Source of the DNA: Mustelus asterias
Lineage: Eukaryota
NCBI RefSeq assembly: GCF_964213995.1
Contig: NC_135808.1
Span: forward strand, 32,426,001-32,490,000
DNA length: 64,000 nt
Direction: 5' to 3'
Both the position numbers and the translations under genes were made by a program. The notes under the pieces are model-generated. The model was not told the origin of the DNA and did not search any database. It saw nothing but the letters and a program-made list of their open reading frames with translations. Shown here piece after piece: positions 864 through 62,905 of this stretch; the first letter of the stretch is position 1; each line of letters opens with the position of its first letter.

Positions 864-1124
864 CGGATGTCTGGTTTGTGATCTTCAGCACTGTATTCAG
901 ATTCTCCTTCACCATGTCTGAGTGCGAGATCACCAGTTCTGTGATATAGTCCCAGAATTCAGAGTCGATATTTTCAGCCATGAACCTCTGTCTGCGAATG
1001 CAGCGACGGATATTACTGTCACAATATCCTGTTTGGATACCATCGACCACTGCAGTGCTTGTAACCGCAGGAAAATCTTCCATCCCAGAGACAACAGTGT
1101 ACATCACCGTGTGTGTGTTAGTGT
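864..1124 (-). CDS. MHC class I-like gene A, alpha1 exon (87 codons, phase 1/1)
   Basis: TTTCTTTTTACAG acceptor and GTAAGA donor; translates DTNTHTVMYTVVSGMEDFPAVTSTAVVDGIQTGYCDSNIRRCIRRQRFMAENIDSEFWD...KITNQTS(G), with class I hallmarks YxDS, RQ, FW and the NQT sequon; 261 nt like the alpha1 exons of B and C. Confidence 0.92.
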
Positions 1125-1197
1125 CTGTAAAAAGAAACAGTTAAAGGGATTGGTTAATAAACACCGGTCTGATCATCAGAACAATCTCGCTGGACTT

Positions 1198-2200
1198 CAC
1201 CATCCCCCCTCCCCAATCACCACCCCCTCCCCAATCAATCACCACCCCCTCCCCAATCAATCACCACCCCCTCCCCAATCACCACCCCCTCCCCAATCAC
1301 CACCCCCTCCCCAATCACCACCCCCCTCCTCCCGATCACCTCCCCCTCCTCCCAATAATCATCCCCTCCTCCCACCCAATCACCACCCTCCCCAATCACC
1401 ACCTCCTCTCCTCGATCACCACCCCCTCCTCCCAATCACCACTCCATCCTCCCAATCACTACCCCCTCCTCGCAATCACCACCCCCTCCTCCCTGATGAC
1501 CATCCCCACTCCCCAGTCACCATCCCCCTTCCCCAATCACCATCCCCCCCTCCCAATCACCATCCCCCCCTCCCAATCACCATCCCCCCCTCCCAATCAC
1601 CATCCCCCCCTCCCAATCACCATCCCCCCCTCCCAATCACCATCCCCCCCTCCCAATCACCATCCCCCCCTCCCAATCACCATCCCCCCCTCCCAATCAC
1701 CATCCCCCCCTCCCAATCACCATCCCCCCCTCCCAATCACCATCCCCCCCTCCCAATCACCATCCCCCCCTCCCAATCACCATCCCCCCCTCCCAATCAC
1801 CATCCCCCCCTCCCAATCACCATCCCCCCCTCCCAATCACCATCCCCCCCTCCCAATCACCATCCCCCCCTCCCAATCACCATCCCCCCCTCCCAATCAC
1901 CATCCCCCCCTCCCAATCACCATCCCCCCCTCCCAATCACCATCCCCCCCTCCCAATCACCATCCCCCCCCTCTCAATCACCATCCCCCCCCTCTCAATC
2001 ACCATCCCCCCCTCCCAATCACCATCCCCCCCTCCCAATCACCATCCCCCCCCTCCCAATCACCATCCCCCCCTCCCAATCACCACTACCTCTTCCCAAT
2101 CACCACCAGAGCCCCCCGAACACCACCCCCTCCTCAATCACCACCCCCTCCCCAATCACCACCCCCTCCCCAATCACCACCCCTACAGAGCCACCCCCCG
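1198..2200. repeat. C-rich minisatellite, 20-bp core unit CATCCCCCCCTCCCAATCAC, in intron 1 of gene A
   Basis: About 21 perfect copies at ~1531-1970 with degenerate flanks; the Pro-rich ORFs here are artefacts. Confidence 0.95.
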
Positions 2201-2816
2201 AACACCACCCCGAATGGGGCAATGGTCCAGGGCTTGGGACAGTAATATGGTCTGGGAGGCTGTGTAAACGGCCGTCAGTGTCCGCGTACTGGCACAGAGG
2301 ACCGGTGACAAGTGCCGGAAGAAGATAAACGATCTTCTTCAGGCAGGAAGGGTCAGTGTCCATCCCATCCTGACATCGGTCCCGTCTGTCACGCCTGCAA
2401 TGCCGAGCCACCCGCCTGACACTCTGCAGCCTCCCAGCACCCGGCCTCCAACCCCATTCCTCCAACCCCTCTGGCACCCCCAGTCACAACCCCAGACTGC
2501 CGAGGCACAGCCCCAATAAACCCCACCCAATCGCCCCCACCCCCTACACCCTGTGTCCTTACAACCATCAGGTTTTCAATCCCTCCTTTATCCCCACAGG
2601 ATAAAGTGGCCCATAACCACCGGGAGCATGCCAAGACTGGAGGTGGGGTCCCCGAGCTGCATCTCCTCACTACCTTTGAGGAGCGCTATGGAGCTAGCAG
2701 GGGGTGAGGAGAGAATGGTCACTGACAGCCAGGTCGGTGTTCACCATGGAAGTGAGAATTTCCAAAACCCTCGTTCAAATGACTCATTCCAGGTAAGTAG
2801 CATGCTGCCCAGAAAC

Positions 2817-6039: not shown

Positions 6040-7280
6040 CACCAAGAAATATGATTGCCCCCCCAGCTGTGACTAATCTTTCTGTGATTCCTGCCCCACA
6101 GGGGTGACCCTATCCTGACCGCACGCAAAGAGGCGCAGAACGTCATGCTGTGTGACAGAGGCCCTTCGGCCAGTAGGCACAGACGGCCTGCCCTGGTATC
6201 TCCAGTACTCACCGCACCCTGTGCCAACTGCCCCCCCCCCAACCCCCCCTCCCCCCCGCCCCTTCCCCCACTCCCCCCCGCCCCTCCCTCCCCAACAGGG
6301 CTTTGTTCCCCCCGTTAACCCCACACAGCCCATTGCCTGCACGTTTATGTCCGAGACCCACACTCAGACGTGTGCCCAGGTGCCAGTGTGGATAGAGAGG
6401 GCAGGTAGGATTCAGACTTGTGTGGCACCAGGGCAGCATCACAGTTTGCCGCATAGTGAGCCATCATCACCCTCCTGCCTGGACCAAGGACTCGCTAGCA
6501 TGCCCAGCCCTCTCCCATCACCTTGGTGTGATGCCATTTGGACCCTTGTACCCCACCAGCCATCCCGACAGCCTGAGCTGGTCCTCAAAGAGCCCGGGGA
6601 TGTCCGAACTCCGGAGGATGTAGCTGTTGTGCCCACTCCCTGGGTGTTGTGCACAGATGTGCATGATATTCAGCCTGTGGTCACGGACAATCTGCACATT
6701 CAGGGAGTGGAACCCCTTCCTATTGATGAAGCGCAGTCCCTGATCATGCAGTGTCCGCTGGACAATGTGAGTGCCACCTACAGCCCTCTGCACATGGGGC
6801 AGTCCAGTGATGGTGGCGAAGCCTGCAGTCCGGGCTTCCTGTTGGGCCTGGCCCATGTTGAAGTGGATGTAATTGGCTGGACGCCTGGAAGGACCTGGTG
6901 GTGTAGAGGTTGAGGGCACCGTGACCTTCACTGCCAACGGGAATGGGTGTCCTCCTGTCCCTCGAGTTGCCAGGTCTGAGGACCTGAAACAGGTGCCGCA
7001 CTGTCTCCTTACTTAGACGGAGCCTGCGGCAACATGTGGCTTCCATCATCCCTGTGAAGGATCTGCAAGTCCTGTACGCCCTGAGCCTCCACCTTCCCCT
7101 GCCCCCCCTCCCCTGTGGGAGGATGCGCTGCCATGTCCTGGCCCTGACCGGCAGCCCCCTGCCCTCCTGCTGTGGCTTCTGGCTCTGTTTGGCCTTGAGT
7201 GGCCGGACATCTCCCTCCTCCTCCCTCCTCAGTGGCCGCTGCAATGATGGCCATTTCTATCACTGCCAATCCAAAATCCA
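6040..7280 (-). pseudogene. Harbinger transposase remnant (HARBI1-like)
   Basis: RLRLSKETV, RAVGGTH (normally GAIDGTH), NRKGFHSLNVQIV, PGSGHNS, LVGYKG; catalytic Asp residues mutated and frameshifted. Confidence 0.85.
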
Positions 7281-10889: not shown

Positions 10890-10941
10890 CGGGAGAGACC
10901 CAGGAAAAACACAGGGAGATGGAGAAAAGGATCAGCAACAT
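10890..10941 (-). CDS. MHC class I-like gene A, leader exon (MLLILFSISLCFSWVSP, phase 1)
   Basis: ATG at 10941, hydrophobic signal peptide, G|GTAAGT donor; identical to the leaders of B and C. Confidence 0.9.
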
Positions 10942-11140
10942 TCTGGGAATCCACTGTCCCAATTCCAATCAGTGACTGCGAATTAAACACTCTGAGGATG
11001 AAACAACTTTATAAACTGAGGAGAAACATGAAAAAAACAAAAATTTTATCCAGACTCCATTTTCCTGTCTCAGTCGGACTTAGCTCATTTCCTGATTGCA
11101 GAAGCAGAGGATGACTGATTGGTTAGTCTCAGAAAATTAA

Positions 11141-11204
11141 CCAATTAAAGAGATAAACAGCCAGCCTGTCACTAGTTACCAGGAAGATCAAACTCGTTCA
11201 GGTT
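11141..11204 (-). promoter_or_regulatory. SXY promoter module of gene A
   Basis: Sense strand AACCT-16 bp-CCTGGTAAC-TAGTGACA-21 bp-ATTGG; second CCAAT downstream; IRF-like AAAGTGAAAC at 11245-11254. Confidence 0.8.
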
Positions 11205-11384
11205 CAGGCTGAAAAAAATCTAATCTTTACCCAGCACCTTGCACAAAGTGAAACCTCCCCAAGGACAGCTTTATAAAACAAAGATTGACCCAGAGACACA
11301 CACAGCTCAATGCACAAAAACTGTCTCCAAATTCCAGGGTTGAAGGAGTGTTTTAAAGACAGGCTGCAGAGGGGTGTAGGGAGG

Positions 11385-14300
11385 TGTGGTGAACCATCGT
11401 TGGTTCCCACTGGATAGTACTGAGCCAGGGTCTGGCCAGTACTACAAGTATGTACATATGTTGCTGTTGGGTTAGGGATGGGTTGTGCTACTTGTTGCTG
11501 TTGGGGTTAGGTTGGGGTTGTTACACCTTTGTATTGTAGTGTTATGGTACATCCCAGTCGGGCTCCGCCTCCTGGGAGAGGTATAAAGGTCCCTGCTCTG
11601 GCTGGGACCCCTCAGTCTGGGATCGTGTATATAATTGTTGGCTGCTTCGTTACAGCAAATAAAAACCTTTATTTCCTGAGCATCAAGCCTCGTGTGTGAC
11701 AACGCGCATCAATTTTATTTGCTGTTGTTAAACTCTCGTCGAAGAAAAAAAAAAGAGAGTATGGAGCAGATACTGAAGCCGGAACGCCTTACACTAGATC
11801 CACGTGCGGTGGGCGCCTCTAACACCTTCGACCACTGGCTGAAGTGTTTCGAAGACTACCTGGCAGCCTCCGCAGCGGTCACCACAGATGATGACAGACT
11901 CCATGTCCTCCATGCGAGGGTAAGCGACACTGTCTACCTCGCGATCCGTGCGGCCACCGATTACACAAAGGCCCTCGAGCTTCTGAAGAAGCGTTATATC
12001 AAACCGCCCAATGAAATACACGCTCGTTACCTCTTAGCCACTCGACAACGGCAGTCTGGCGAAACGATGGAGGAATATGCGAACGAGCTCCTACAGCTAG
12101 CCAGGGGCTGTAACTGCAAAGCTGTGTCGGCTGAGCAGAGTATAAACTACCTCGCCCGAGATGCGTTTGTGGTGGGAGTCGGATCGTCGTACATTCGACT
12201 TAAACTGCTGGAGAAAGGTAACCTTGACCTTACCCAGGCAATCGAGCGAGCGGAGATGCTGGAGACGGCCTCCAAAAGCCTAGTATTGTATCCTGAAGAC
12301 CACGTGGAGACAACATGGCAGGAGCAGTCGCCAATCCCTCCTCGTCCCTCGGGTTCAAAATGCCGCGTAATGGCGTGCTCACACTCAGGCCAGACGACGG
12401 CAGCAGCTCCGGGTGGCCCGCGGTGTTACTTCGTTGGGGGAGCGAAGCATACTCGGCAACGGTGTCCCGCTAAGTCTGTGTTGTGCTCCGCCTGCGGTAA
12501 GAAGGGGCACTATTCGAAAGTGTGCCGATCTAAATCTAGGAACGGCAGTGCAGCCTGCGATTCCTCAGAGCCCGGGTCTTTGTCGTCGAAATCATCGAGG
12601 GGTTCGTCCACGTGCGAGGCCAGGACGACGCCATTACGGTCGACGGAGTCGGAGGTGTGTGACCACCAGGGGTCGCTGAGTTTGACGCCATCACCCACGT
12701 GCGACCTATGGGAGCGGCCATGTTGGTCGGCACCGACCGCGAACGACTAGCAGGGGTCCTCCTCCTCTATTTCAGCTGCCTGCAGTGGCGCTCATGAGCC
12801 AACGGTGGCGTCGATCATCCTGGACCAGGCCAAGCCTCATAGACTTGACAAATCTATGATGAACATCCAGGTAAATGACCACGTGATTTATTGTCTGTTT
12901 GACAGCGGGAGCACTGAGAGCTTTATCCACCCAGACACTGTGACGTGGTGTGGACTCCGGATTCAACCTGCCAAACAGACAATTTCTATGGCATCGAGGT
13001 CCCGGTCTGTCACCGTGCGAGGGAGTTGCGTGGTAACTTTGACGGTGCAAGGCACAGTTTACGGGCGTTTCAAGCTCCTAGTGTTGCCGTACCTTTGCGC
13101 GCCAATACTTCTCGGACTAAACTTCATGGTCCACTTGAGGAGTGTAACCCTACAGTACGGTGGGCCACTCCCTTCACTGTCAGTGGGAGAACAGCAGCCT
13201 CCAAATTGCCCAACGCACCCCGCTTGTAGCCTCTCGACGCTGAAGATCACCACACCCTCCCTGTTCCAGAATCTTGTGCCAGGCTGCAAGCCCATCGCGA
13301 CTAAAAGTAGGCGTTACAGCGCTGAGGATCGGATCTTCATTAGATCTGAGGTTCAGCGGCTCCTCAAAGAAAGGATCATACAACCCAGCGCTAGTCCGTG
13401 GAGAGCGCAGGTCGTGGTGGTCAAGAGCGGGAACAAACCCCGGATGGTCATTGACTACAGTCAGACCATTAATCGATATACGCAGCTGGATGCGTATCCT
13501 CTCCCGCGCATATCTGATATGGTCAATCAGATCGTGCAGTACCGGGTGTTCTCCACCATAGACCTCAAGTCTGCCTACCACCAACTCCCCATTCGCCCAG
13601 AGGACCGACAATACACGGCTTTTGAGGCGGATGGTCACTTGTATCACTTTCTCAGGGTTCCCTTTGGTGTCGCCAATGGGGTCTCGGTCTTCCAGCGTGC
13701 TATGGACCGAATGGTCGACCAGAACGGGCTGCGGGCTACCTTCCCGTACCTGCATAATGTCACCATCTGCGGCCATGACCAGCAGAACCACGACACGAAT
13801 CTCCTGAACTTCCTACGCACTGCATCTCGCCTGAACTTGACCTACAACAGGGAGAAGTGTGTGTTTCGTACGCGCCGTTTAGCCATCCTAGGATACGTGG
13901 TGGAAAACGGGGTCATTGGCCCTGATCCAGACCGTATGCACCCCCTTTCTGAACTTCCCTTGCCTGCTAGTGCAAAAGCACTGAGAAGATGCTTAGGCTT
14001 CTTCTCTTATTATGCGCAGTGGGTTCCCAATTACGCGGACAAAGCCCGTCCGCTCATTAAGTCCACTACTTTTCCCCTAACGCCAGAGGCCCGATTGGCC
14101 TTTGATAAATTAAAAGCCGACATCGCGAAAGCTACGATGCACGCTGTTGATGAGTCCATCCCCTTTCAGGTGGCGAGCGATGCATCTGATTTCGCCCTGG
14201 CCGCCACACTTAACCAGGCGGGCAGGCCCGTCGCATTTTTTTCCCGCACCCTCCAAGGCCCCGAAATCCAGCATTCAGCGGTGGAAAAGGAGGCCCAGGC

Positions 14301-16127
14301 CATTGTGGAGGCCGTCAGGCACTGGCGCCATTACTTGGCGGGAAAACGGTTCATCCTGATCACGGACCAGCGGTCCGTGGCGTTCATGTTTAATAACACG
14401 CAGAGGGGCAAGATCAAGAATGACAAGATCTTGCGGTGGAGAATTGAACTCTCCACCTATAACTATGACATCATGTATCATCCAGGGAAACTCAATGAGC
14501 CCTCGGATGCCCTCTCACGTTGAACATGCGCCAGTATACAGGAGGACCGTTTGCAGGCTCTCCATAATGACCTATGCCATCCTGGGGTCACTCGGCTCTA
14601 CCACTTTATAAAAGCCCGCAATCTGCCCTACTCGGTGGAGGACGTCAGGTCAGTAACAAGAAGCTGTCGGGTATGCGCGGAATGCAAACCGCACTTTTAC
14701 CCACCTGACCGGGCACATTTAGTCAAGGCCACTCGTCCCTTCGAGAGACTGAGTGTCGATTTTAAGGGCCCCCTTCCCTCAACAGATCGGAATGTGTACT
14801 TCCTCAACATCATTGACGAGTACTCGAGGTTCCCTTTTGTTGTTCCCTGCTCTGATACATCCGCTGCCACGGTTATCAAGGCATTCCGTGATCTCTTTAC
14901 CCTGTTCGGGTACCCCGGCTACATTCACAGCGACAGGGGCTCGTCGTTCATGAGCGATGACTTGAGGCAATTCCTGCTCTCATACGGGATTGCCTCTAGT
15001 AGGACCACGAGCTACAACCCTCGGGGTAACGGACAGGTGGAACGTGAGAATGCTACAGTCTGGAAGGCTGTCTTACTGGCGTTGAAGTCAAAATGCCTTC
15101 CAGTCTCCCGTTGGCAAGAGGTGCTCCCTGATGCGCTCCATTCTATTCGCTCACTCCTGTGTACGGCAACCAATGCTGCTCCCCATGAGAGGATGTTTTC
15201 ATTCCCTCGGAAGTCTTCCTCGGGGACCTCTTTACCGTCTTGGTTGACGTACTCAGGACCCGTCCTCCTGCGGCGACATGTAAGGGCCCTCAAGTCCGTC
15301 CCGTTGGTCGAACAGGTCCATCTCCTCCACGCCAACCCTCAGTATGCCTATGTGGCATACCCTGACGGGCGAGAGGACACGGTCTCGATCCGAGACCTGG
15401 CGCCAGCAGGGGACGTAGCAACCCCTGTCGCTCCCATACCCCCTGTTACAAACCCTTTAACTCTTGTTTCTCCCCCGGACACGGCGCGGGCAGCATCGGG
15501 ACCATTGCTTACTCCCGTGTACAGCTTGCCTGAGTCCAGAGGATGGTCGCCACTTCAGGGCGTGTCGGGACTCCATGGACTACCGTCACCTCAGGGTCAA
15601 CCGGCCTGTGAGTCTGTGGAGGAACAGCTGGACATCACCTTGGGGAGAACGCCACCGCAAGTGCCTACTACGGTGTCACCGCCGGTATTGAGGAGTTCAC
15701 AACGACGGTGCGGTCCCCCTGACCGTCTGAACTTATAGACTGATGACAAATTATTCTGTTTTTGTACCCCGCCGGTCTTTGTTCTCAAAGGAGGGGTGAA
15801 TGTGGTGAACCATCGTTGGTTCCCACTGGATAGTACTGAGCCAGGGTCTGGCCAGTACTACAAGTATGTACATATGTTGCTGTTGGGTTAGGGATGGGTT
15901 GTGCTACTTGTTGCTGTTGGGGTTAGGTTGGGGTTGTTACACCTTTGTATTGTAGTGTTGTAGTACATCCCAGTCGGGCTCCGCCTCCTGGGAGAGGTAT
16001 AAAGGTCCCTGCTCTGGCTGGGACCCCTCAGTCTGGGATCGTGTATATAATTGTTGGCTGCTTCGTTACAGCAAATAAAAGCCTTTATTTCCTGAGCATC
16101 AAGCCTCGTGTATGATAACGCGCATCA
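11385..16127 (+). mobile_element. Full-length Ty3/Gypsy LTR retrotransposon, inactive
   Basis: 327-bp LTRs 11385-11711 and 15801-16127 (TG...CA, ~5 mismatches), 5-bp TSD GGAGG, PPT AAAGGAGGGGTGAA, domain order gag-PR-RT-RH-IN. Confidence 0.97.
11761..15738 (+). pseudogene. Gypsy gag-pol polyprotein, single frame with two in-frame stops
   Basis: Zn knuckle CSACGKKGHYSKVC, protease LFDSGS, RT motif YLHN (catalytic D lost), RNase H DASD, integrase HHCC and DDE; TAG 12748-12750 and TGA 14521-14523. Confidence 0.93.
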
Positions 16128-17250: not shown

Positions 17251-17253
17251 TAT

Positions 17254-17545: not shown

Positions 17546-17559
17546 CTTACTTTTCCTTG

Positions 17560-23090: not shown

Positions 23091-24290
23091 TGACTTGTGC
23101 CATTAGATGGTGAACATGTTTTGGGGAGTCAGGAAGTGGTTACTCACTGCAGGATCCCTAACCTCTGACCTGCTCTTGGAATCACAGTATTTACACAGCT
23201 AGTCCAGTTTTGTTTCTGGTCAATGGTCGCCCCCAGGATGTTGCTAATGGGGGATTCAGTCATGGTAATGCCATTGAATGTCAAGGGACGATGGTTAGAT
23301 TCTCTCTTGCTGGAGATGGTTGTTACCAAGCACTTGTGTGGCCCAAATATTACTTGCCAGTTTGTCCAAGCCTGGATATTGTCCAGGTCTGGCTGCATTT
23401 GAACATGGACTGCTTCAGTATCTGAGGAGTCATAATGCAGCTGAACATTGTGCAATCATCAGCGAACATCCCCACTTCTGACATTATCATAGAAGGCAGG
23501 TCATTGATGAAGCAGCTGAAGATGGTTGGGACTGGGACACTCCCCTGAGAAACTCCTGCAGTGATGCCCAGAGACTGAGATGATTGACCTTCAACCAGAC
23601 AACCATCTCTTGAACCATCTGCAAACATTCAATCCCTCCACCACTGATGCACAGTGGCAGCTGTGTGAACCAGCGACAAGATTCACTGCACAAACTCACC
23701 AAGGCTCCTTGTGCTAGTTATGATTCCAACCAGTGGAGTATTTTCCCCGATACCCATTGACTCCGGTTTTACGAGGGCTCCTTGGTGCCATACCTGGTCA
23801 AATGTCACCTTGATGTCAAAGGCTATCACACTCACCTCACCTCTGGAACTCAGCTCTTTTGTCCATGTTTGAACCAGGACTGTAATGAGGTCAGGAGCTG
23901 AGTGACCCTGGTGAAACCCAAACTGGGTGTCACTGAGCAGGTTATTGCTGAGTAAGTGCCGCTTGATGGCACTGTTGATGACCCCTTCATCACTTTGCTG
24001 ATGATTGACAATAGACTGATTGGGCTGTAATTGGCTGGGTTAAATTTGTCCTGTTTCTCGTGTACAGCACATACCTGGGCAATTTTATACATTGCCCGTG
24101 TTCCAGCTGTACTGGAACAGCTTGGCTCAGGGAGCAGCAAGTTCTGGAGCACGAGTCTTCAACACTATTGCCGGGATATTGTCCTTCCACACCAACACAC
24201 TCCCTTTATCAGCTTCTCCACACTTCTCATTACTGAGAAGCTGGTGAGCCTTCACCTCCAGCTCACTGGGAAATGTGTTGAAGTTTGATT
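23090..24290 (-). mobile_element. Degraded CR1/L2-group LINE ORF2
   Basis: NYSPISLLS, GVSQGSV, FINDLPS, MFADDCT. Confidence 0.8.
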
Positions 24291-24359
24291 CACTAAAGTT
24301 TGGACACGGCTTCCTCTCCTCTGTCTCTCGCACTGACATCTTCTTTTCTGTTAACAAGT

Positions 24360-39734: not shown

Positions 39735-39995
39735 CGGATGTCTGGTTTGTGTTCTTCAGGATCGTATTCAGATTCTTCATTGCAATGTCGGATCGTGCGT
39801 TCCCAATATCTGTGAGCATATTCCAGAATTCCTCCTTGAAATGTTCTTCCATGAACTTTTGCCTGGGGATCATCTGACGGATATCACTGTCATAATAATC
39901 TATTTCCACTCCATTGATCATTGCAACACCACTAACAACAGGAAAGTCTTTAATACCAGAGATTGCTGTGTATATCACAGTAAATGAGCTGGTAT
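39735..39995 (-). CDS. Gene B alpha1 exon (87 codons)
   Basis: TTTCTTTTACAG acceptor, GTAAGA donor; DTSSFTVIYTAISGIKDFP...YYDSDIRQMIPRQKF...FWN...NQTS(G). Confidence 0.94.
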
Positions 39996-40536: not shown

Positions 40537-40832
40537 TGACGCGCGATAAATCACACGGGAGGCTGGATGTACCCGGGAAATAAAGGCTTTTATTGCCAAC
40601 AATAACGGAGCTACTATATACAATATACAATCCCAGACTAAAGGGTCACCAGGCAGAGCAGTGACCTTTATACCTCTCCCAGAAGGCGGAGCCAACTGGC
40701 GTGTACCATAGGACTATATTAACAGGTAGAACAGCCCAACCCTAACCCCAACAGTAACATATCTACAGACTCATAGTACTGGCCAGACCATGGCTCAGCA
40801 CTCCTGGTGGTAACCAACAATGGTTCAGCACA
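40537..40832 (-). mobile_element. Solo LTR (296 bp) related to the Gypsy LTRs at 11385 and 15801, in gene B intron 1
   Basis: Reverse complement aligns to the Gypsy LTR (GAGAGGTATAAAGGTC, AATAAAAGCCTTTATTTCC); 5-bp TSD GCTGT; empty site in gene C near 45645. Confidence 0.92.
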
Positions 40833-40942
40833 GCTGTATAACAGCGTCTGAGCAAACATCACCCATTTCAAACTCTCACCAAAAGATTCAAATTCACCCC
40901 AGAGAGAGAGAGTGAGAATGGAAGAGTGAATTCTGTACTTAC

Positions 40943-40994
40943 CGGGAGAGACCCAGGAAAAACACAGGGAGATGGAGAAAAGGATCAGCAACAT
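40943..40994 (-). CDS. Gene B leader exon
   Basis: ATG 40994, MLLILFSISLCFSWVSP, G|GTAAGT. Confidence 0.92.
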
Positions 40995-41193
40995 TCTGGG
41001 AATCCACTGTCCCAATTCCAATCAGTGACTGGGAATTAAACACTCTGAGGAGGAAACAACTTTATAAACTGAGGGGAAACTTGAAAAAAACAAAAATTTT
41101 ATCCAGACTCCATTTTCCTGTCTCAGTCGAACTTTGCTCATTTCCTTATTGCAGAAGCAGAGGATGACTGAATGGTTAGTCTCAGAAAATTAA

Positions 41194-41257
41194 CCAATTT
41201 AAGAGATAAACAGTTAACCTGTCACTCGTTACCAGGAAGATCAAACTCAGACAGGTT
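41194..41257 (-). promoter_or_regulatory. SXY promoter module of gene B
   Basis: AACCT-16 bp-CCTGGTAAC-GAGTGACA-21 bp-ATTGG; IRF-like AAAGTGAAAC at 41302-41311. Confidence 0.8.
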
Positions 41258-42099
41258 CCGATTCAGGCTGAAAAATCTAATCTTTCTCCAGCGCCTTTCA
41301 CAAAGTGAAACCTCCCCAAGGGCAGCTTTATAAAACAAAGATTGACCCAGAGACACACACAGCTCAGTGCACAAAAACTGCTCAAAGTTCTAAAGTGTTT
41401 TAGAGAGAGGCTGCAGAGGGGTGTAGGGAGGGGATTACAGAGTGAAGGACCGAGGTTACTAAAGGCACAGTCCCCAGTGGGGCGATTCTAATCCCTGATA
41501 CTGGAGATTTCCGAATGAGAGGAACACAGAGATCTCACAGAGTTTGTGAAACTGGAGGAGATTACAGAAATAGGAAGGGGCGAGGACATGGAGAGATTTC
41601 AATTTTAAAATTCTCAAGATCCACTGCAGCAACTCACCAAGGTTGCTGTTCCATTGAGTGTTCGAGATATAGATTCTTTGGGGCTTGTCTATCTCCCAAC
41701 GTAACCTGCATGAGACTGAAGTTTGTTCAAACATTCCTCTGTATTTACAGCTTCAATATGTGTCTGAGGATCTCTGTATGAGGCTAAAACTCTTCCCCGC
41801 TCCAGAGCCACAGCAATGTGGTTGGCTTTTAACTGTCCTTGGGCAATAAATGCTGGCCAGCCAGCGGTGCCCAGGTCCCACGAATGAATAAAGAAAACAG
41901 ATTAAAGATGTGCAGGTTAGGTGGATTTGCCATGCTATATTGCTCCTTAGTGTCCCAAGACGTGCAGGTTAGGGGGATTAGTGGGGTTAGGGGATAGGGC
42001 AGCGTCTGGGCCTGAGTAAGATGCTCTGTTGGTACATACTCAATGGGCCAAATGGTCTCCTACTGCACTGATAGGGATTCTATCATGCTATGAAAATCC

Positions 42100-45178: not shown

Positions 45179-45240
45179 AACCTGTCTGAGTTTAATCTGC
45201 CTGGTAACTGCTGACATTACATTCTTTATCCTGTTATTGG
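45179..45240 (+). promoter_or_regulatory. SXY promoter module of gene C
   Basis: AACCT(45179)-16 bp-CCTGGTAAC(45200)-TGCTGACA-19 bp-ATTGG(45236); second CCAAT at 45259. Confidence 0.8.
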
Positions 45241-45488
45241 CTATTTTTCTGAGGCTAACCAATCAGAGCTTGTCCAGGAAGTTTAAGTTCAGGAAATGAT
45301 CAAACTGGAAATAAACAACAATAAAAGAGGGAAATGCGATGACTGGTCTGAACTGTTTCTGTCCTTCTGAATCTACTTGGACTTCTTGTTTATTGTGTGT
45401 TTTCCAATCACAATAAACAGTGTTAGATTCCTCCTCAGAGTGTTTAATTCGCAGTCACTGATTGGAATTGGGACAGTGGATTCCCAGA

Positions 45489-45540
45489 ATGTTGCTGATC
45501 CTTTTCTCCATCTCCCTGTGTTTTTCCTGGGTCTCTCCCG
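45489..45540 (+). CDS. MHC class I-like gene C leader exon
   Basis: ATG 45489, MLLILFSISLCFSWVSP, G|GTAAGT. Confidence 0.92.
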
Positions 45541-45812
45541 GTAAGTACAGAATTCACTCTTCCATTCTCACTCTCTCTCTCTGGGGTGAATTTGAATCTT
45601 TTGGTGAGAGTTTGAAATGGGTGATGTTTGCTCAGACGCTGTTATACAGCCAGCCTGATATTTGACACCATTGAAGTCAGCACAGTGTGGAAGACTCTGA
45701 TGGGATTGGTGTTCAGCTCTCCTGACAGCAGGATGTACAAACACCCAGAGCAGAGAAGCTTGGAGCAAATGGAAAATGCTTCAAATGGACAATTTTAATT
45801 TTCACTTCGATT

Positions 45813-46788: not shown

Positions 46789-47049
46789 CTACTGATTCAA
46801 TAATTGCAGTATACACCGCGGTCTCCGGAATGACAGATTTCCCCGAGGTGACTAAAGTTGCGACGGTCAATGGAATTCAGGTGAATTATCACGACAGTAA
46901 CATTCGACAGACCATCCCCAGACAGCAGTTCCTGATGGAATCTTTCAAACAGGCCTATTGGGATGATCTGTCTAGTATTGGAAACAGACATTCGACCGTC
47001 ACAAAGGATTATCTGTTTACAGTCATGAAGAGCATGAACCAGACATCAG
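46789..47049 (+). CDS. Gene C alpha1 exon (87 codons)
   Basis: TTATTTTCCAG acceptor, GTAAGA donor; ATDSIIAVYTAVSGMTDFPEV...YHDSNIRQTIPRQQF...YWD...NQTS(G). Confidence 0.94.
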
Positions 47050-47054
47050 GTAAG

Positions 47055-49679: not shown

Positions 49680-50745
49680 ACACTCAGTCCACTCTAGCAC
49701 TGAACCCTGGGATACTGAACACAGTCCATCCCAGCACTGAACCCAGGGATCTGGACTCAGTTCCCCAACACAGATCCCTGGGACACTGAACTCCATCCCC
49801 CAGCACTGACCCCCTGGGACACTGAACTCCATCCCCCAGCACTGACCCCTGGTACACTGAACTCCATCCCCCAGCACTGACCCCCTGGGACACTGAACTC
49901 AGTCCCCCAGCACTGACCCCTGGGACACTGAACTCAGTCCCCCAGCACAGACCCCTGGGACACTGAACTCCATCCCCCAGCACTGACCCCCTGGGACACT
50001 GAACTCAGTCCCCCAGCACTGACCCCTGGGACACTGAACTCAGTCCCCCAGCACAGACCCCTGGGACACTGAACTCCATCCCCCAGCACTGCCCCCTGGG
50101 ACACTGAACTCAGACCATCTCCCAGCACTGACCCCCTGGGAAACTGAACTCAGTCCCCCAGCACTGACCCCTGGGACACTGAACTCAGTCCCCCAGCACT
50201 GACCCCTGGGACACTGAACTCAGTCCATCTCCCAGCACTGACCCCCTGGGAAACTGAACTCAGTCCCCCAGCACTGACCCCTGGGACACTGAACTCAGTC
50301 CCCCAGCACTGACCCCTGGGACACTGAACTCAGACCCCCATCACTGACCCCCTGGGACACTGAACTCCATCCCCCAGCACTGCCCCCTGGGACACTGAAC
50401 TCAGTCCCCCAGCACTGACCCCTGGGACACTGAACTCCATCCCCCAGCACTGACCCCTGGGACACTGAACTCAGTCCCCCAGCACTGACCCCTGGGACAC
50501 TGAACTCCATCCCCCAGCACTGACCCCTGGTACACTGAACTCAGTCCCCCAGCACTGACCCCTGGGACACTGAACTCAGACCCCCAGCACTGACCCCTGG
50601 GACACTGAACTCAGTCCCCCAGCACTGACCCCCTGGGACACTGAACTCCATCCCCCAGCTCTGACCCCTGGGACACTGAACTCCGTCACCCAGCACTGAC
50701 CCCTGGGACACTGAACTCAGACCCCCAGCACTGACACCTGGGACA
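49680..50745. repeat. Minisatellite, 31-36 bp unit (CTGGGACACTGAACTCAGTCCCCCAGCACTGACCC), ~30 copies, gene C intron 2
   Basis: Reverse complement of the 61-817 array. Confidence 0.95.
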
Positions 50746-51114
50746 CATAATCACTCATTTCTATCTGATACTAGATCCCTTTCCCTCTGGTAACATTGTG
50801 ACACTAATCCCCATTTCTGATACTAGATCCCCGATCCCCTCTGATCACACTGGGACTCTAATCCCCATTTCTATCTGATGGTAGATCACTGATCCCCTCT
50901 GATCACACTGCGACTCTAATCCCCATTTCTATCTGATACTAGATCACTGATCCCCTCTGATCACACTGCGACTCTAATCCCCATTTCTATCTGATACTAG
51001 ATCACTGATCCCCGCTGATCACACTGCGACTCTAATCCCCATTTCTATCTGATACTAGATCACTGATCCCCGCTGATCACACTGCGACTCTAATCCCCAT
51101 TTCAAAGAGCTTCG

Positions 51115-54470: not shown

Positions 54471-54747
54471 GCTTTCTGATACTAGATCCCCAATCCTCTC
54501 TAATCACACTGCGACTCAAATCCCCATCTCAATCTGATACTGGATCCCTGATCCCCTCTGATCACACTGTGACTCAGATCCCCATTTCTACCTGATACTA
54601 GATATCCGATCCCCTCTGATCACACTGTGACTCTAATCCCCATTTCAATCTGATACTAGATCTCCGATCCTCTCTGATCACACTGACTCTAATCCCCATT
54701 TCTATCTGATACCAGATCCCTGATCCCCTCTGATCACACTGTGACTG

Positions 54748-56569
54748 AGGCAAAGGAAAATCCAAAGTGCTCCTGCAAATACATAAAGGGCAAAAGGGTA
54801 ACAAGTAGGGCCTCTTAAGGGTCAACAAGGTCATCTATGTGCGTATCCACAAGAGATGGATTATTGAGATCCTAAATGAATATTTCTCATCAGTATTTAC
54901 TGTTGAGAAAAGCATGGATGTTATGGAACTTGGGGAAATAAATAGTGATGTCTTGAGGAGTGTACATATTACACAGAAGGAGGTGTTGGAAGTCTTAAAG
55001 CGCATCAAGGTAGATAAATCCCCGGGACTTGATGAAGTGTATCCCAGGACATTGTGGGAGGCTAGGGAGGAAATTGTGGGTCCCCTAGCAGAGATTTTTG
55101 AATTATCGATAGCCACAGGTGAGGTGCCTGAAGATTGGAGGGTGGCAAATGTTGTGCCTTTGTTTAAAAAGGGCTGCAGGGAAAAGCCTGGGAATTACAG
55201 GCTAGTGAACCTCACATTTATGGTGGGGAGGTTGCTGGAAGGTATTTTGAGAGACAGGATTTACAGACATTTAGAGACGCAAGGACTGATTAGAGACAGT
55301 CAGCATGGCTTTGTGAGTGGAAAATCATGTCTCACAAATTTGATTGAGTTTTTTGAAGGGGTAACCAAGAAGGTAGATGAGGGCAGGGCAGTTGATGTTG
55401 TCTACATGGACTTTAGAAAGGCCTTTGACAAGGTACCGCATGGTAAGGTTAAATCTCACAGGACCCAGGTGAGGTAGCTAAATGGATCCAAAATTGGCTT
55501 GACGACAGCAGCCAGAGGGTAGTTGTAGAGGATTGTTTTTCAAACTGGAGGCCTGTGACCAGCGGTGTGCCTCAGGGATCAGTGCTGGGTCCACTGTTAT
55601 TTGTCATTTATATTAATGATTTGGATGAGAATATAGGAGGCATGGTTAGTAAGTTTGCAGATGACACCAAGATTGGTGGCATAGTGGACAGCGAAGAAGG
55701 TCATCTCAGATTGCAACGGGATCTTGATCAATTGGACCAGTGGGCTGACAAATGGCAGATGGAGTTTAATTTAGACAAATGCGAGGTGATGCATTTTGGG
55801 AGATTGAACCAGGGCAGGACTTACTCAATTAATTGTAGGGCGTTGGGGGAGAGTTACAGAGCAAAGAGATCTAGGGGTACAGGTTCATAGCTCCTTGAAA
55901 GTGAAGTCACAAGTGGACAGAGTGGTGAAGGCGGCATTCGGCACGCTTGGTTTTATTGGTCAGAACATTGAATACAGGAGTTGGGACATCTTGTTGAAGT
56001 TGTACAAGATATTGGTAAGGCCGCACTTGGAACACTGTGTACAGTTCTGGTCACCCGATTATAGAAAATATATTATTAAACTAGAAAGAGTGCAGAAAAG
56101 ATTTACTAGGATGCTACCGGGACTTGATGGTTTGAGTTATAAGGAGAAGCTTGACAGACTGGGACTTTTTTCTCTGGAGCGTAGAAGGCTGAGGGGTGAA
56201 CTTATAGATGTCTATAAAATAATGAGGGGCATAGACAAGGTGATAGTCAATATCATTTCCCAGAGGTAGGGGAGTCTAAAACTAGAGGGCATAGGTTTAA
56301 GGTGAGAGGGGAGAGATACAAAAGGGTTCAGAGGGGCAATTGTTTCACACCGAGGGTGATGAGTGGCTGGAACCAGCTGCCAGAGGTAGTAGTGGAGGTG
56401 GGTACATTTTTCTAACCTTTTAAAAAGCATTTAGACAGTTACATGGGTAAGATGGGTATAGAGGGATATGGGCCAAATGCGGGCAATTGGGACTAGTTTA
56501 CGGCTTTAAAAAAAGGGCGGCAGGGACAAGTTGGGCCGAAGGGTCTGTTTCCATGCTGGAAACCTCTAC
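54748..56569 (+). mobile_element. CR1 LINE ORF2, 5'-truncated
   Basis: RT motifs with frameshifts. Confidence 0.93.
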
Positions 56570-57687
56570 GACTCTAATCTCCATTTCAATCTGATACTAG
56601 ATCCCCGATCCCCTCTGATGACACCATGACTCTAATCCCCATATCTATCTGAGACCAGATCCCTTTATCCTCTGATCATACTGTGACTCTAACCCCCATT
56701 TCTATCTGATACTAGATCCCTGATCCCCTCTGATCACACAGTGACTATAATCCCATTTATATCTGATACTAGATCCCTGATCTGCTCTGATCACACTGCG
56801 ACTCTAATCCCCATTTCTATCTGATACGAGATCCCTTTCCCCTCGAATCACACTGTGACTTGAATCCCCATTTCTATTTTACACCAGATGCCCCATGAAC
56901 ACACTGTGACTCTAATCCCCATTTATATCTAATACCAGATCCCTGTTCCCCTCTGATCACACTGTGACTCTATTCCCCATCTCAATCTGATACTAGATCC
57001 CTGATCCCCTCTGATCACACTGCGACTCAAATCCCCATTTCTATCTGATACTATATCTCTGATGCCCTCTGATCACACTGTGACTCTAATCCCCATTTCA
57101 ACCTGATACTAGATCCCTGATCCCCTCTGATTACACTGCGACTCAAATGTCCATTTCTGATACTAGATCTCCAAATTACTCTGATCACAGTGACTCTAAT
57201 CCCCATTTCTATACTAAATCACTGATCCCCTCTAATTACATTGCGACTCTAATCCCCATTTATATCTGATACTAGATCCCTGATCCCCTCTGATCACACT
57301 GTGACTCTCACCCCCATTTCTGTCTGATACTAGATCTCTGATCCCCTCTGATCATACTGTGACTTAAATCCCCATTCTATTTGATACCAGATCCCTGATC
57401 CCCTCTGATCACACTGTGACTCTAATCCCCATTTCTACCTGATTCTAGATCCCCATCCCCTCAGATCATATTGCGACTCAAATCCCCATTTCTGATACAA
57501 GATCCCTGATCCCCCCTGATCACACTGTGACTCTAATCCCCATTTCTGATACTAGATCCCTGATCCCCTCTGATCACACTGTGACTCTAATCCCCATTTC
57601 TATCTGATACTAGATCCCTTTTCGCTCTGATCTGATTGTTAGTGATTTTCCATTAATGATAGATCATTAATTATCAATCTCTGACAG

Positions 57688-57963
57688 GAATTCACACTTT
57701 CCAGTTGATTATGATTGTTGAGGTCACTGAAGACGGCTCCATTAAGAGATCGATGCGGTTTGGATTTGATGGAAAGGACTATATTAGTTTAGAGCCAGAC
57801 AGAATGAGATGGGTCGCAACCAATCACTTCGCAGTGAAGACTAAAGAGAAATGGGATCTGAATGAATCCTGGAACAAGCACTGGAAAAGGACTTTGGAAG
57901 TACATTGTGTGCAGTATTTGAAAAGATATTTACAAGCTGGAAAGGAACATTTTGAACGGAAAG
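57688..57963 (+). CDS. Gene C alpha2 exon (92 codons)
   Basis: CTCTGACAG acceptor, GTATCT donor; GIHTFQLIMIVE...FGFDGKDYISL...TKEKW...LEVHCVQYLKRYLQAGKE. Confidence 0.94.
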
Positions 57964-59860: not shown

Positions 59861-59873
59861 CTATGGATCTAAT

Positions 59874-60225
59874 GGGCGGCACGGTAGCACAGTGGTTAGC
59901 ACTGCTGCTTCACAGCTCCAGGGTCCCGGGTTCGATTCCCGGCTCGGGTCACTGTCTGTGTGGAGTTTGCACATTCTCCTTGTGTCTGTGTGGGTTTCCT
60001 CCGGGTGCTCCGGTTTCCTCCCACAGTCCAAAGATGTGCGGGTTAGGTTGATTGGCCAGGTTAAAAAATTGCCCCTTAGAGTCAAGGGATGTGTAGGTTA
60101 GAGGGATTAGTGGGTAAAATATGTGGGGGTAGGGCCAGGGTGGGATTGTGGTCGGTGCAGACTCGATGGGCCGAATGGCCTCCTTCTGCACTGTAGGGTT
60201 TCTATGATTCTATTTCTATGATTCT
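59874..60225 (+). mobile_element. tRNA-derived SINE
   Basis: Nearly identical to the SINE in gene B alpha3. Confidence 0.93.
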
Positions 60226-60476
60226 ATAACTGCTTTAGGGCAGGTTTAAAGAGGCAGCACAAGGTTTAGAGAAAGTCCCTGCCCCCAGCAGTGTAGTTGA
60301 ATGTAACAGCAGATTCTGGTGGTGAAGGGACTGTGTCTCTGAGCTTTTTAGATAATTTATTGACTTTCTTGAGCTGTTTCTAAAACTAATTCAGAGAGCA
60401 GGGGGATCTTCAATTTGTAGTCATGACCATCTCCCTGTTAGCTCCACGAGATCCCTGTCTAGATTCCCAATTGGGT

Positions 60477-62450
60477 GCTGAGACCCCCTTCACACAGCCA
60501 ATTGGCACAGTTCCTGCAGAGACCCCCTTCACACTGCCAATTGGCACAGTTCCTGCAGAGACCCCCTTCACACTGCCAATTGGCACAGTTCCTGCAGAGA
60601 CCCCCTTCACACAGCCAATTGGCACAGTTCCTGCAGAGACCCCACTTCACACAGCCAATTGGCACAGTTCCTGCAGAGACCCCCTTCACACTGCCAATTG
60701 GCACAGTTCCTGCACAGACCCCCTTCACACTGCCAATTGGCACAGTTCCTGCACAGACCCCCTTCACACTGCCAACTGGCACAGTTCCTGCAGAGACCCC
60801 CTTCGCACTGCCAATTGGCACAGTTCCTGCACAGACCCCCTTCACACTGCCAACTGGCACAGTTCCTGCAGAGACCCCCTTCGCACTGCCAATTGGCACA
60901 GTTCCTGCAGAGACCCCCTTCACACTGCCAATTGGCACAGTTCCTGCACAGACCCCCTTCACACTGCCAATTGGCACAGTTCCTGCACAGACCCCCTTCA
61001 CACTGCCAACTGGCACAGTTCCTGCAGAGACCCCCTTCGCACTGCCAATTGGCACAGTTCCTGCAGAGACCCCCTTCACACTGCCAATTGGCACAGTTCC
61101 TGCAGAGACCCCCTTCACACTGCCAATTGGCACAGTTCCTGCAGAGACCCTTCACACTGCCAACTGGCACAGTTCCTGCAGAGACCCCCTTCGCACTGCC
61201 AATTGGCACAGTTCCTGCAAAGACCCCCTTCACACTGCCAATTGGCACAGTTCCTGCACAGACCCCCTTCACACTGCCAATTGGCACAGTTCCTGAAGAG
61301 ACCCTTCACACTGCCAATTGGCACAGTTCCTGAAGAGACCCTTCACACTGCCAATTGGCACAGTTCCTGCACAGACCCCCTTCGCACTGCCAATTGGCAC
61401 AGTTCCTGCAGAGACCCCCTTTCACACTGCCAATTGGCACAGTTCCTGCACAGACCCCCTTCACACTGCCAACTGGCACAGTTCCTGCAGAGACCCCCTT
61501 CGCACTGCCAATTGGCACAGTTCCTGCACAGACCCCCTTCACACTGCCAATTGGCACAGTTCCTGAAGAGACCCTTCACACTGCCAATTGGCACAGTTCC
61601 TGCACAGACCCCCTTCGCACTGCCAATTGGCACAGTTCCTGCAGAGACCCCCTTTCACACTGCCAATTGGCACAGTTCCTGCACAGACCCCCTTCACACT
61701 GCCAACTGGCACAGTTCCTGCAGAGACCCCCTTCGCACTGCCAATTGGCACAGTTCCTGCACAGACCCCCTTCACACTGCCAATTGGCACAGTTCCTGAA
61801 GAGACCCTTCACACTGCCAATTGGCACAGTTCCTGCAGAGACCCTTCACATTGTCAATTGGCACAGCTCCTGCAGAGACGCTTTACACTGCCAATTGGCG
61901 CAGTTCCTGCAGAGACCCCCTTCACACTGCCAACTGGCGCAGTTCCTGCAGAGACCCCCTTCACACTGCCAATTGGCGCAGTTCCTGCAGAGACCATTTT
62001 CACACTGCCAATTGGCGCAGTTCCTGCAGAGACCATTTTCACACTGCCAATTGGCACAGTTCCTGCAGAGACCCCCTTCACACTGCCAACTGGCGCAGTT
62101 CCTGCAGAGACCCCCTTCACACTGCCAATTGGCGCAGTTCCTGCAGAGACCATTTTCACACTGCCAATTGGCACAGTTCCTGCAGAGACCCCTTTCACAC
62201 TGAGAATTAGCATGATTCCTGCAGAGACCCCATTCACACGGCCAATTGGCACAGTTCCTACAGAGACCCTTCACACTGCCAATTGGCACAGTTCCTGCGG
62301 AGACCCCATTCACACGGCCAATTGGCACAGTTCCTACAGAGACCCTTCACACTGCCAATTGGCACAGTTCCTGCAGAGACCCTTCACACTGCCAATTGGC
62401 ACAGTTCCTACAGAGACCCCATTCACACTGCCAATTGGCACAGTTCCTGC
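60477..62450. repeat. 39-bp minisatellite (CTGCAGAGACCCCCTTCACACTGCCAATTGGCACAGTTC), ~50 copies, gene C intron 3
   Basis: Visible tandem units; 13-residue periodic ORFs on both strands. Confidence 0.96.
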
Positions 62451-62626
62451 GAGGCAGACACAAACTGGCGGTCTTGATGATTGAATGGTGGATCTGAAGT
62501 AGCATGCGAACTGAGCGGACCTCTCTGTTTCTGCCCTGCCTGCCTCCAAATACAGCTCATTGAACCGTTCTCCCATTCCATTCAGTGTGGGTTTATTGTT
62601 TGTGTTTTCACCCTTTCCCATTACAG

Positions 62627-62905
62627 TTCAGCCTGACGTCTTCATCTCCAGAAGTGAACCCAATAGTCAGTACAAGTCGCTCACTCTCTCCTGCCTGGTT
62701 ACTGGCTTTTATCCTGCAGACATCGAGGTGACCTGGCTAAGGAATGGAGAGGTAATGTCTGAGACACTATCCTCGGGGGTTCGACCGAACCACGATGGGA
62801 CCCATCAGATCCAGAAAGAGATTGAAATAAATGCTGGGGATGAGGATCAATACTCCTGTCAAATTGAACACAGCAGCCTGGCAGAGCCCAAGCTCCATCA
62901 GTCGG
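62627..62905 (+). CDS. Gene C alpha3 (Ig C1) exon (93 codons)
   Basis: CCCTTTCCCATTACAG acceptor, GTAAGG donor; C-x-TGFYP, W, PNHDGT, YSC-x-IEHSSL. Confidence 0.96.

Follow-up and report, generated by a model that had tools for sequence, protein, structure and literature searches.

The window (the whole 64,000-nt stretch of DNA analysed here) carries three MHC class I genes, referred to as A, B and C. We consider it highly probable that these belong to a shark-only group of many nonclassical class I paralogs, most likely UEA, in which old, gene-specific grooves are combined with a leader and an alpha3 exon whose uniformity is likely due to gene conversion; gene B is interrupted by a SINE and is probably disabled, and atypical ligand display is predicted. 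The locus would then show how the family is maintained, with old grooves set in an otherwise uniform framework and, now and then, an alpha2 swap or a SINE knock-out. The genes themselves were already annotated, and concerted evolution of alpha3 is already known from mammals and newts.

Exon anatomy of the three genes

The exons of A, B and C are identical to those of RefSeq Mustelus asterias models, and all confirmed exons are in phase 1 with GT/AG ends, in the gene order A(−), B(−), C(+), as the initial annotation had described. Eleven of the 12 exons that it listed are as it gave them. The leader exons have 52-nt coding parts at 10890–10941 (minus strand, gene A; MLLILFSISLCFSWVSP), 40943–40994 (minus, gene B) and 45489–45540 (plus, gene C). 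The 261-nt alpha1 exons lie at 864–1124 (minus, gene A; identical to XP_078073788.1, P0018), 39735–39995 (minus, gene B; identical to XP_078073798.1, P0002) and 46789–47049 (plus, gene C; identical to the first half of XP_078073786.1, P0001), and the 276-nt alpha2 exons at 32533–32808 (minus, gene B) and 57688–57963 (plus, gene C). Gene B further has a 111-nt exon for the connecting peptide and transmembrane segment (30923–31033, minus) and a short cytoplasmic exon (29773–29814, minus; (D)SPSGTYTTAPSQ-stop), which starts at 29814 and has its stop codon at 29773–29775. The exception concerns alpha3, where two exons of 279 nt had been proposed: that of gene C (62627–62905, plus) is intact at this length, whereas that of gene B spans 639 nt (31777–32415, minus) and contains a 360-nt SINE. 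The interruption and mosaicism of gene B and the homogenisation of leader and alpha3, all discussed below, had been missed in that earlier reading.

Gene B is the only gene with a complete exon set inside the window, its alpha3 being interrupted; the remainder of gene A lies to the left and that of gene C to the right. Neither orphan class I exons nor a second cytoplasmic exon of the SDLPVPEPS type were found within the window. The Pfam MHC_I family matched all five groove exons, the alpha2 matches lying above the curated cut-off and those of alpha1 (E-values 1e-5 to 7e-3) falling short of it, and C1-set was matched by alpha3. The genes thus show the anatomy of a class I heavy chain, with leader, alpha1, alpha2, C1-set alpha3, transmembrane and cytoplasmic exons and the class I fold. 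It should be noted that RefSeq models here can mislead, since gene B is modelled as intact and the models for gene C are fused products of 556–648 aa.

Family placement

In the alpha1 tree A, B and C fall inside an 80-row shark-only clade (100/99), apart from UAA, UDA, UGA and dogfish UCA, and the alpha2 and alpha3 trees are concordant with this placement, the alpha3 tree being a quick one with weak inner support and all three being built without UBA and UFA rows. Separate trees for the three domains had been proposed as the check on the nonclassical assignment, with nesting in classical UAA as the adverse outcome; no sequence nests there in any of them. The proposal of a multigene lineage also holds, as there are at least 13 distinct alpha1 types in Mustelus asterias and 74 family genes in 13 shark species. 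Named matches above 50% identity come from sharks only (13 species), the best named rays reaching 36–37% and the best chimaera 29%; this range was obtained by a word-index search, in which absence outside sharks is moderate evidence. In white shark the cluster may be 3.2 Mb away from class II.

UEA occurs in sharks and is not known from rays or chimaeras; it is distantly related to UCA, from which it was split, and it has lost anchors and has a relatively hydrophobic groove. This shark MHC-Ib lineage was reportedly treated by Almeida et al. in 2021. The name UEA, previously offered as a best guess, is the most likely one for the present family by exclusion, by the shark-only range and by a link to UCA (loss of Cys101, Val7 and attachment in the alpha2 tree, to be read with long-branch caution), the labelled rows in the trees being those of UAA, UDA, UGA and UCA. 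Set against UEA as described second-hand in PMC10751288 and PMC12562908, the family is likewise nonclassical and multicopy, with clustered genes in either orientation, limited to sharks among named matches and UCA-related; its partly lost anchors and a groove more hydrophobic than classical ones may be a further resemblance. It differs in that C-terminal anchors are kept in most rows and that gene B is SINE-broken and mosaic.

It is improbable, in our view, that the family is instead the UCA of galeomorphs and of sharks in general, or that it represents a lineage not yet named. The closest labelled row in the PMC10751288 supplement, where the label UEA has no match, is tagged UCA ('Gcirratum_UCA_NODE_26056', nurse shark); it agrees with gene C alpha3 at 77/93 residues by eye and has alpha1 orthologs inside the 80-row clade. 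Dogfish UCA (Squalus acanthias, UniProt Q8HWI9, P0135) shares Val at 7 and 101 and similar alpha2 beta-strands with the family, also lacks both alpha2 cysteines, and in the alpha2 tree branches from within the family, its branch being very long. Against this, its identity to A, B and C ranges from 14 to 42% by domain (alpha1 14–21%, alpha2 32–37%, alpha3 42%), its leader is another one, it keeps one of nine anchors compared with four to six in A, B and C, and it stands outside their clade for alpha1 and alpha3. UCA is not known outside dogfish, and UEA is the lineage that was split off from it. In two papers UBA and UEA alone are named as expanded shark families, and PMC10751288 describes UEA as multicopy. 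What makes an unnamed lineage unlikely is the large size of the family in 13 shark species, together with the fact that the nurse shark query of the group that named UEA belongs to it. Far less credible still is the idea that A, B and C represent classical UAA, or UBA genes derived from UAA: they do retain Tyr123, Thr143, Lys146, Trp147, the Asn86 glycan site, a cytoplasmic YxxA-like motif and an SXY-like promoter, but their identity to houndshark UAA is 23–26% in alpha1 and 36–38% in alpha3, they lie outside the UAA clade in all three trees, and both the alpha2 disulfide and the full set of nine anchors are missing. The UBA rows of the same supplement are unlike A, B and C by eye, their alpha3 having a short first loop as in UAA.

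Three further shark lineages can be set apart from the family, for which UEA remains the preferred name. Shark UDA (P0123 of nurse shark, which matches the UDA row in the PMC10751288 supplement) shares the leader alone: the peptide is the same, including species-specific variants, and in four of five sharks the family leader equals the UDA leader of the same species. In other respects UDA differs, being single copy, forming its own clade, keeping the alpha2 disulfide and 7–8 anchors, having a charged groove and a long cytoplasmic tail, and showing 21–31% alpha1 identity to the family; PMC10751288 places it in the same genomic cluster. We did not find a shared UDA/family leader reported in the shark class I literature, judged mostly by listings. 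Shark UGA (PDB 9CH4) and UFA, described as CD1-like lipid binders in PMC12562908, are single or low copy and form separate clades. UGA has the same overall fold, but it keeps the alpha2 disulfide, has an alpha1 identity of 22–24% and lies outside the family clade in the alpha1, alpha2 and alpha3 trees; a sawfish UFA-like protein, left out of the trees, is 25–38% identical to the family.

Homogenised leader and alpha3 exons

The leaders of A, B and C show 0/51 nt differences, and alpha3 of B (outside its insert) and C differ at 4/279 nt, all four non-synonymous. The alpha1 exons of the same genes have pairwise dS values of 0.61, 1.50 and 1.29, with dN below dS in all three pairs and no replacement excess at this depth; alpha2 of B and C has a dS of 0.31. 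The homogenised tracts have sharp bounds and non-coding flanks that are 97–99.5% alike. Around the gene B leader the tract covers 40833–41055 (minus), identical at 222/223 nt to gene C 45428–45650, and the alpha3 similarity of B and C reaches about 65 nt upstream and 12 nt downstream of the exon. Compared within species, the 74 genes have a median identity of 51% in alpha1 and 95% in alpha3; the closest sequence belongs to the same species in 19/74 cases for alpha1 and in 57/74 for alpha3. Judged by these comparisons alpha1 is ancient, with orthologs in whale and zebra shark. As near-zero divergence of leader and alpha3 is found beside deep divergence of alpha1, the homogenisation points to gene conversion.

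Strong purifying selection, or recent duplication of whole genes, is a very unlikely source of the same pattern. Alpha3 binds beta2-microglobulin and is generally constrained, and several close paralogs of gene A at 87–91% in alpha1 show that recent duplication does happen; however, selection at the protein level leaves synonymous changes in place, and there are no synonymous differences in alpha3 and no differences at all in the leaders of gene pairs whose alpha1 dS is 1.3–1.5. Nor would such selection account for sharply bounded tracts with nearly identical non-coding flanks, and whole-gene duplication cannot yield alpha1 trees that cross species together with alpha3 trees that follow them. 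Under gene conversion, short tracts exchanged between neighbours would overwrite the promoter-leader region and alpha3, so that all paralogs would keep one export signal, one SXY-type switch and one face for beta2-microglobulin and co-receptor, while each alpha1 lineage would persist across shark orders and occasional overwriting of alpha2 would give a hybrid groove, as in gene B. We also entertain, as something of a long shot, that the UDA/UEA cluster is a cassette system, in which one promoter-leader module is actively kept identical in lineages that diverged hundreds of millions of years ago because of a function of the leader itself, for example as a common self-peptide that signals class Ib expression, much as class I leaders are read by HLA-E and Qa-1, and in which ancient sublineages exchange whole alpha2 exons to give hybrid grooves like that of B.

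Class I alpha3 concerted evolution has been described in mammals (PMC1397804) and newts (PMC12863176). There, as in the present family, the groove domains form deep lineages and alpha3 groups by species via gene conversion; unlike there, the leader exon and its flanks are homogenised here too, apparently between lineages as far apart as UDA and this family. In practice orthology should be assigned by alpha1 only, and the paralogs cannot be told apart by short reads or by probes for alpha3 or the leader. A and B have about 1.5 kb of upstream DNA in common at 90–95%, a likeness that unequal crossing-over or segmental duplication would explain no less well than short conversion. A 99-nt match between the upstream region of A and a flank of C was set aside as a probable repeat.

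Mosaic structure and SINE interruption of gene B

In alpha1, gene B has whale and zebra shark genes as its sister group (100/98). Its alpha2 is sister to P0060 (100/89), a paralog of another alpha1 sublineage, with which it is identical at 86/92 residues and which it follows at 23/26 informative sites. On this sequence evidence gene B is a mosaic with an alpha2 from another sublineage.

The SINE (32027–32386, plus strand, antisense to the gene; tRNA-like A and B boxes, TTCTATGAC tail) begins 29 nt into alpha3, dividing the exon into a 29-nt 5' piece (32387–32415, minus) and a 250-nt 3' piece (31777–32026, minus), and is 94% identical to a copy at 59869–60220. Reading through it meets four in-frame stops, the first at 32272, and the four placements that would excise the insert exactly have the ends AG..AT, GT..TA, TC..AG and CA..GT. 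None of these is canonical, and a new, exactly spliced intron was therefore rejected. The in-frame stops and the want of a canonical splice that removes the insert exactly suggest that gene B is probably disabled or truncated. Transcripts bearing the SINE would end prematurely and likely decay, although skipping of alpha3 or use of a cryptic acceptor at 31962 would preserve the reading frame, with a shortened membrane protein as the product.

That gene B is nonetheless functional, the SINE being polymorphic on this haplotype or spliced out and the usual allele encoding a full-length protein with a hybrid groove, is less probable than its loss but has to be taken seriously. The remaining exons, splice sites and promoter boxes are all intact, the SINE is young, and the RefSeq model XP_078073798.1 (P0002) combines an intact alpha3 with gene B's own transmembrane exon. 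A SINE-free allele may also exist, since in run X19 a contig with the 3' end of B-type alpha2 (32495–32615) overlaps a SINE-free alpha3 contig by 30 nt and, among the contigs listed, none bridges the junction of SINE and exon. On the other hand, the depth of that alpha3 contig (137, compared with 10–28 for single-copy pieces) indicates collapse of paralogs, no exact excision is canonical, and the argument is about other alleles, the sequence in the window itself being interrupted.

Groove and predicted ligands

With the groove positions and HLA numbering that we take to apply, six of the nine peptide-terminus anchors are retained in A, four in B and six in C. Tyr123, Thr143, Lys146 and Trp147 are kept in all three genes and Tyr7, Arg84 and Trp167 are lost; among 77 family rows Tyr7 occurs in none, Trp147 in all and Lys146 in 70. 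Cys101 is found in 0/90 rows and Cys164 in 8/90, gene C having Cys164 without Cys101 and gene B neither, while alpha1 of gene A has two additional cysteines at mature positions 35 and 42. Mean groove hydropathy at the positions so assigned is +0.44 in A, +0.08 in B and +0.11 in C, with a family median of +0.20 compared with −0.18 to −0.51 in classical molecules. A model of gene A (mean pLDDT 87.5; TM 0.86–0.93, by target length, to class I structures) predicts that the usual class I fold is adopted in the absence of the alpha2 disulfide. The fold search gives no ranking of ligand classes, since class I structures of all kinds have similar scores in it; the best alpha1 sequence match among solved structures is 9CH4 (E 1.4e-13).

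The products are predicted to be surface proteins paired with beta2-microglobulin. Because of the four residues kept and the three lost, peptides or lipopeptides held by the C-terminus, with the N-terminus modified or overhanging, seem the likeliest ligands, if at rather less than an even chance; lipids are distinctly less probable, and the absence of any ligand slightly less probable again. Putative ligands might be read by innate-like T or NK receptors; we know of no ligand or receptor of UEA. Two leads come from this locus: a groove without the disulfide in which C-terminal anchors alone are kept, and a leader in common with UDA.

Promoters and expression

SXY-like modules with spacings of 16 and 20–22 nt precede all three leaders, the box letters being taken as S/X/Y-like. 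In gene A (11141–11254, minus) an ISRE-like site is followed by an S-like box, 16 nt, an X-like box, 22 nt and ATTGG; gene B (41194–41311, minus) has an ISRE-like site and an S-16-X-22-Y-like module, and gene C (45179–45240, plus) an S-16-X-20-Y-like module, with no ISRE-like site in the promoter stretch tested. The pattern was written after the sequence had been viewed, so that shuffle statistics are not a fair test of it. The spacing matches that given in PMC4374748. A contig of run X1 joins the end of an A-type alpha1 (29/30 nt) exactly to the alpha2 acceptor, which suggests that the family is expressed, the run being from an organism other than Mustelus asterias, RNA by guess and seen as contigs only. 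It has no cover over the 3' end of gene B alpha2 (32532–32603), a hole that, in another organism, proves nothing.

Transposon surroundings

The genes had been called buried in transposon DNA, and 58% of the window does match other parts of it (a figure that counts tandem arrays and MHC exons), and coding pieces of LINE, Gypsy-type and Harbinger-type elements are present; Rfam found nothing in the window. A Gypsy-type LTR retrotransposon (11385–16127, plus; LTRs 98.5% alike, 5-nt target duplication, pol broken by stops) has inserted 444 nt ahead of the ATG of gene A. Intron 1 of gene B holds a solo LTR (40537–40832, minus) with a 5-nt target duplication, at a site that is empty in gene C.

Gene content and RefSeq models

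Exons were sought with a scan for open phase-1 exons, by tblastn with those exons and by tblastn with 139 stored relatives. The window holds three leaders, three alpha1, two alpha2, two alpha3 loci, one TM and one cytoplasmic exon, and neither the scan nor either tblastn search found further class I exons in it. The exon boundaries and GT/AG ends of genes A, B and C were verified, as was the boundary of the gene B TM exon (30923–31033, minus strand). The arrangement A(−), B(−), C(+) given by the initial annotation is correct, B and C lying head to head with 4.5 kb between them; its exon list holds for leaders, alpha1, alpha2, TM, cytoplasmic exon and splice ends but not for B alpha3, which spans 639 nt rather than 279.

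The exons of A and B are identical to the Mustelus asterias RefSeq proteins XP_078073788.1 and XP_078073798.1 respectively, and those of C to the first half of the fused models XP_078073785–7. These three (stored as P0001, P0017 and P0020) run from gene C, via its TM exon, into the alpha1 of the following gene and predict double class I proteins of 556–648 aa; this is probably annotation read-through, which the common phase 1 of all exons allows. A protein search with gene A gave 125 matches; among the 120 listed, named matches above 50% identity were all sharks (13 species) and rays reached 36–37%, and a search of 50% representatives (rows without names) gave the same picture. A, B and C are real genes of a known nonclassical shark family, already annotated; what the analysis adds is a mosaic paralog broken by a SINE, a measurement of homogenisation exon by exon, and the leader common to UDA.

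Lineage of the family

For the trees, 123 rows were hand-labelled from 274 stored proteins and split into domains. In the alpha1 tree (101 rows, after removal of partial, duplicate and three poor rows) A, B and C fall within an 80-row clade (100/99), with houndshark UAA, UDA, UGA and dogfish UCA outside. Within it, A falls with genes of Mustelus and catshark, and B with those of whale shark and zebra shark (100/98); C sits at the end of a long branch, together with genes of white shark, basking shark and catshark (95/88). The alpha2 tree (108 rows) again separates the family, although UCA joins within the family by a very long branch whose placement is unsure. In the alpha3 tree, built by the quick method only (105 rows), sequences cluster according to species or family, and inner nodes are weakly supported. 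The proposed reading as a nonclassical multigene lineage stands, and nesting of these alpha1 sequences in houndshark UAA was not seen.

Reference lineage names came from a by-eye match to a labelled alignment in the PMC10751288 supplement and, for 9CH4, from its PDB title; the stored rows include no UBA protein, and for a UFA-like protein of sawfish the comparison was by BLAST alone. The supplement carries no UEA label; the nurse shark row that it labels UCA agrees with C alpha3 at 77/93 residues (by eye), the alpha1 orthologs of that row falling inside the 80-row clade. According to PMC10751288 and PMC12562908, the expanded shark families are UBA and UEA, and UEA maps with UDA beside class II. 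By exclusion, UEA is the very probable identity of the family.

Exon-level homogenisation

Divergence differs by exon. Alpha1 pairs among A, B and C differ at 80–107 of 258 nt (dS 0.61–1.50, dN 0.35–0.47) and B and C alpha2 at 52 of 273 (dS 0.31); the three leaders show 0/51 differences, and B and C alpha3 four in 279, all non-synonymous, within similarity running from about 65 nt before the exon to 12 nt past its end. Around the leader, B and C are alike at 222/223 nt from −61, then at 97% past a B-only solo LTR and then at 80%, and A and B are 91% identical over 595 nt and 90–95% farther upstream, where a Gypsy-type element breaks the match in A. For the 74 genes whose alpha1 was distinct and whose domains were complete, median identities within/between species were 51/49% (alpha1), 70/67% (alpha2) and 95/86% (alpha3). 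B alpha2 matches P0060, a paralog of a different alpha1 sublineage, at 86/92 residues, against 62–65/92 to orthologs of B's alpha1, and 23 of 26 informative sites go with P0060; B alpha1 matches it at only 44/87. These comparisons indicate concerted evolution with exon exchange; for alpha3, such a pattern is already described in newts (PMC12863176) and mammals (PMC1397804).

Among protein models, the UDA leader is the commonest family leader, local variants included, in four of the five species with both sequences: Mustelus, Chiloscyllium punctatum (Arg14), Hemiscyllium (Leu6, Arg14) and Pristiophorus (Leu6, Thr8). In Heterodontus the two are one residue apart. Four further UDA models have no leader; that of sawfish UDA is related but diverged and that of chimaera UDA different. 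As only protein models were compared, annotation may have borrowed the UDA leader from a neighbouring exon.

The SINE in gene B and expression

The 639-nt span of B alpha3 is due to a 360-nt element inserted after exon nucleotide 29. This element, with tRNA-like boxes and a tail of TTCTATGAC, runs antisense to the gene, and a copy at 59869–60220 shares 94% identity with it; we take it to be a shark HE1/V-SINE. Read-through encounters four stop codons, starting at 32272, and none of the four placements that excise the element exactly has canonical splice ends. The frame would be kept by skipping alpha3 or by using a cryptic acceptor (31962), in the latter case with loss of the first alpha3 cysteine. 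As XP_078073798.1 has an intact alpha3 and B's own TM exon, either a non-canonical intron jumps the SINE or the model reflects a SINE-free copy. In sequencing run X19 the contig with B-type alpha2 lies next to one that lacks the SINE, a faint hint of a SINE-free B allele. The intron 3′ of B alpha3 (31655–31777) and the read-through tail of model P0003, an A-like paralog, are nearly identical; C, unlike these two, departs 12 nt past the exon, a further mosaic patch.

Four of 22 runs were compared, over 32340–33040. One contig of X1 (another organism, RNA by guess) joins an alpha1 end (29/30 nt match to gene A) to the alpha2 acceptor and a second runs from alpha2 into SINE-free alpha3, with a length that fits intron loss; because of these two joins, the family is spliced as predicted, the junctions not being attributable to A, B or C of Mustelus asterias. 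SINE-free alpha3 also occurs in X19 and X21, as paralogs would give.

Groove and predicted fold

By HLA numbering, six of nine peptide-terminus anchors are kept in A, four in B and six in C. All three keep Tyr123, Thr143, Lys146 and Trp147 and lose Tyr7, Arg84 and Trp167; Tyr7 is missing in 77/77 family rows and Cys101 in 90/90, and Cys164 is present in 8/90. Mean groove hydropathy at 34 positions is +0.44 (A), +0.08 (B) and +0.11 (C), with a family median of +0.20, against −0.18 to −0.51 in five classical-type rows and −0.6 to −0.95 in UDA. We infer that the ligands might be peptides or lipopeptides held by the C-terminus. Both alpha2 exons (B and C) show His93, Gln96, Asp119, Gly120 and Asp122, which we take to be beta2m contacts. 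Gene A was modelled with AlphaFold from a 94-row alignment; the model has a mean pLDDT of 87.5 and a normal platform, and it matched class I structures with TM 0.86–0.93 by target length, a search that gave no ranking of ligand types. Gene A alpha1 (864–1124) has two additional cysteines, seven residues apart on strands three and four, possibly a new disulfide; both occur in 4/77 family rows and the second alone in 32.

Putative promoters and transposons

An X-like box lies 242–289 nt 5′ of each leader, with an S-like word 16 nt before it and ATTGG 20–22 nt after; in A and B an ISRE-like site is present as well. The same S/X/Y spacings are given for NLRC5 targets in PMC4374748. The search pattern was post hoc, and the boxes are putative promoter elements. 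In all three genes a second CTGATTGG (CCAAT-type) site directly precedes the ATG and falls within the homogenised tract (10942–10968, 40995–41021 and 45462–45488).

A full-length Gypsy-type LTR retrotransposon (11385–16127; LTRs 98.5% alike, 5-nt target duplication, a gag-like ORF and pol pieces broken by stops) lies 444 nt upstream of gene A and leaves the SXY-like module intact. The solo LTR in gene B intron 1 (40537–40832) is of a family related to its LTRs (70%); gene C has the empty site, and B–C identity is 99.5% on one side of the LTR and 97% on the other, as though conversion tracts ended at this point. A LINE at 24386–28031 encodes an ORF1 with a GDSL esterase domain, an endonuclease and a reverse transcriptase, and the tail of RefSeq model P0021 enters LINE-related sequence (24193–24450). 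A Harbinger-type DDE_Tnp_4 fragment (6521–7012) lies within the 9.8-kb first intron of gene A. Minisatellites with 35-, 58- and 39-nt units occupy 60–820, 49682–50746, 50748–51103, 54475–54746, 56569–57619 and 60476–62450; a 35-nt array lies 3′ of alpha1 in both A and C, and the 58-nt unit before alpha2 is present once in B and in about 19 copies in C.
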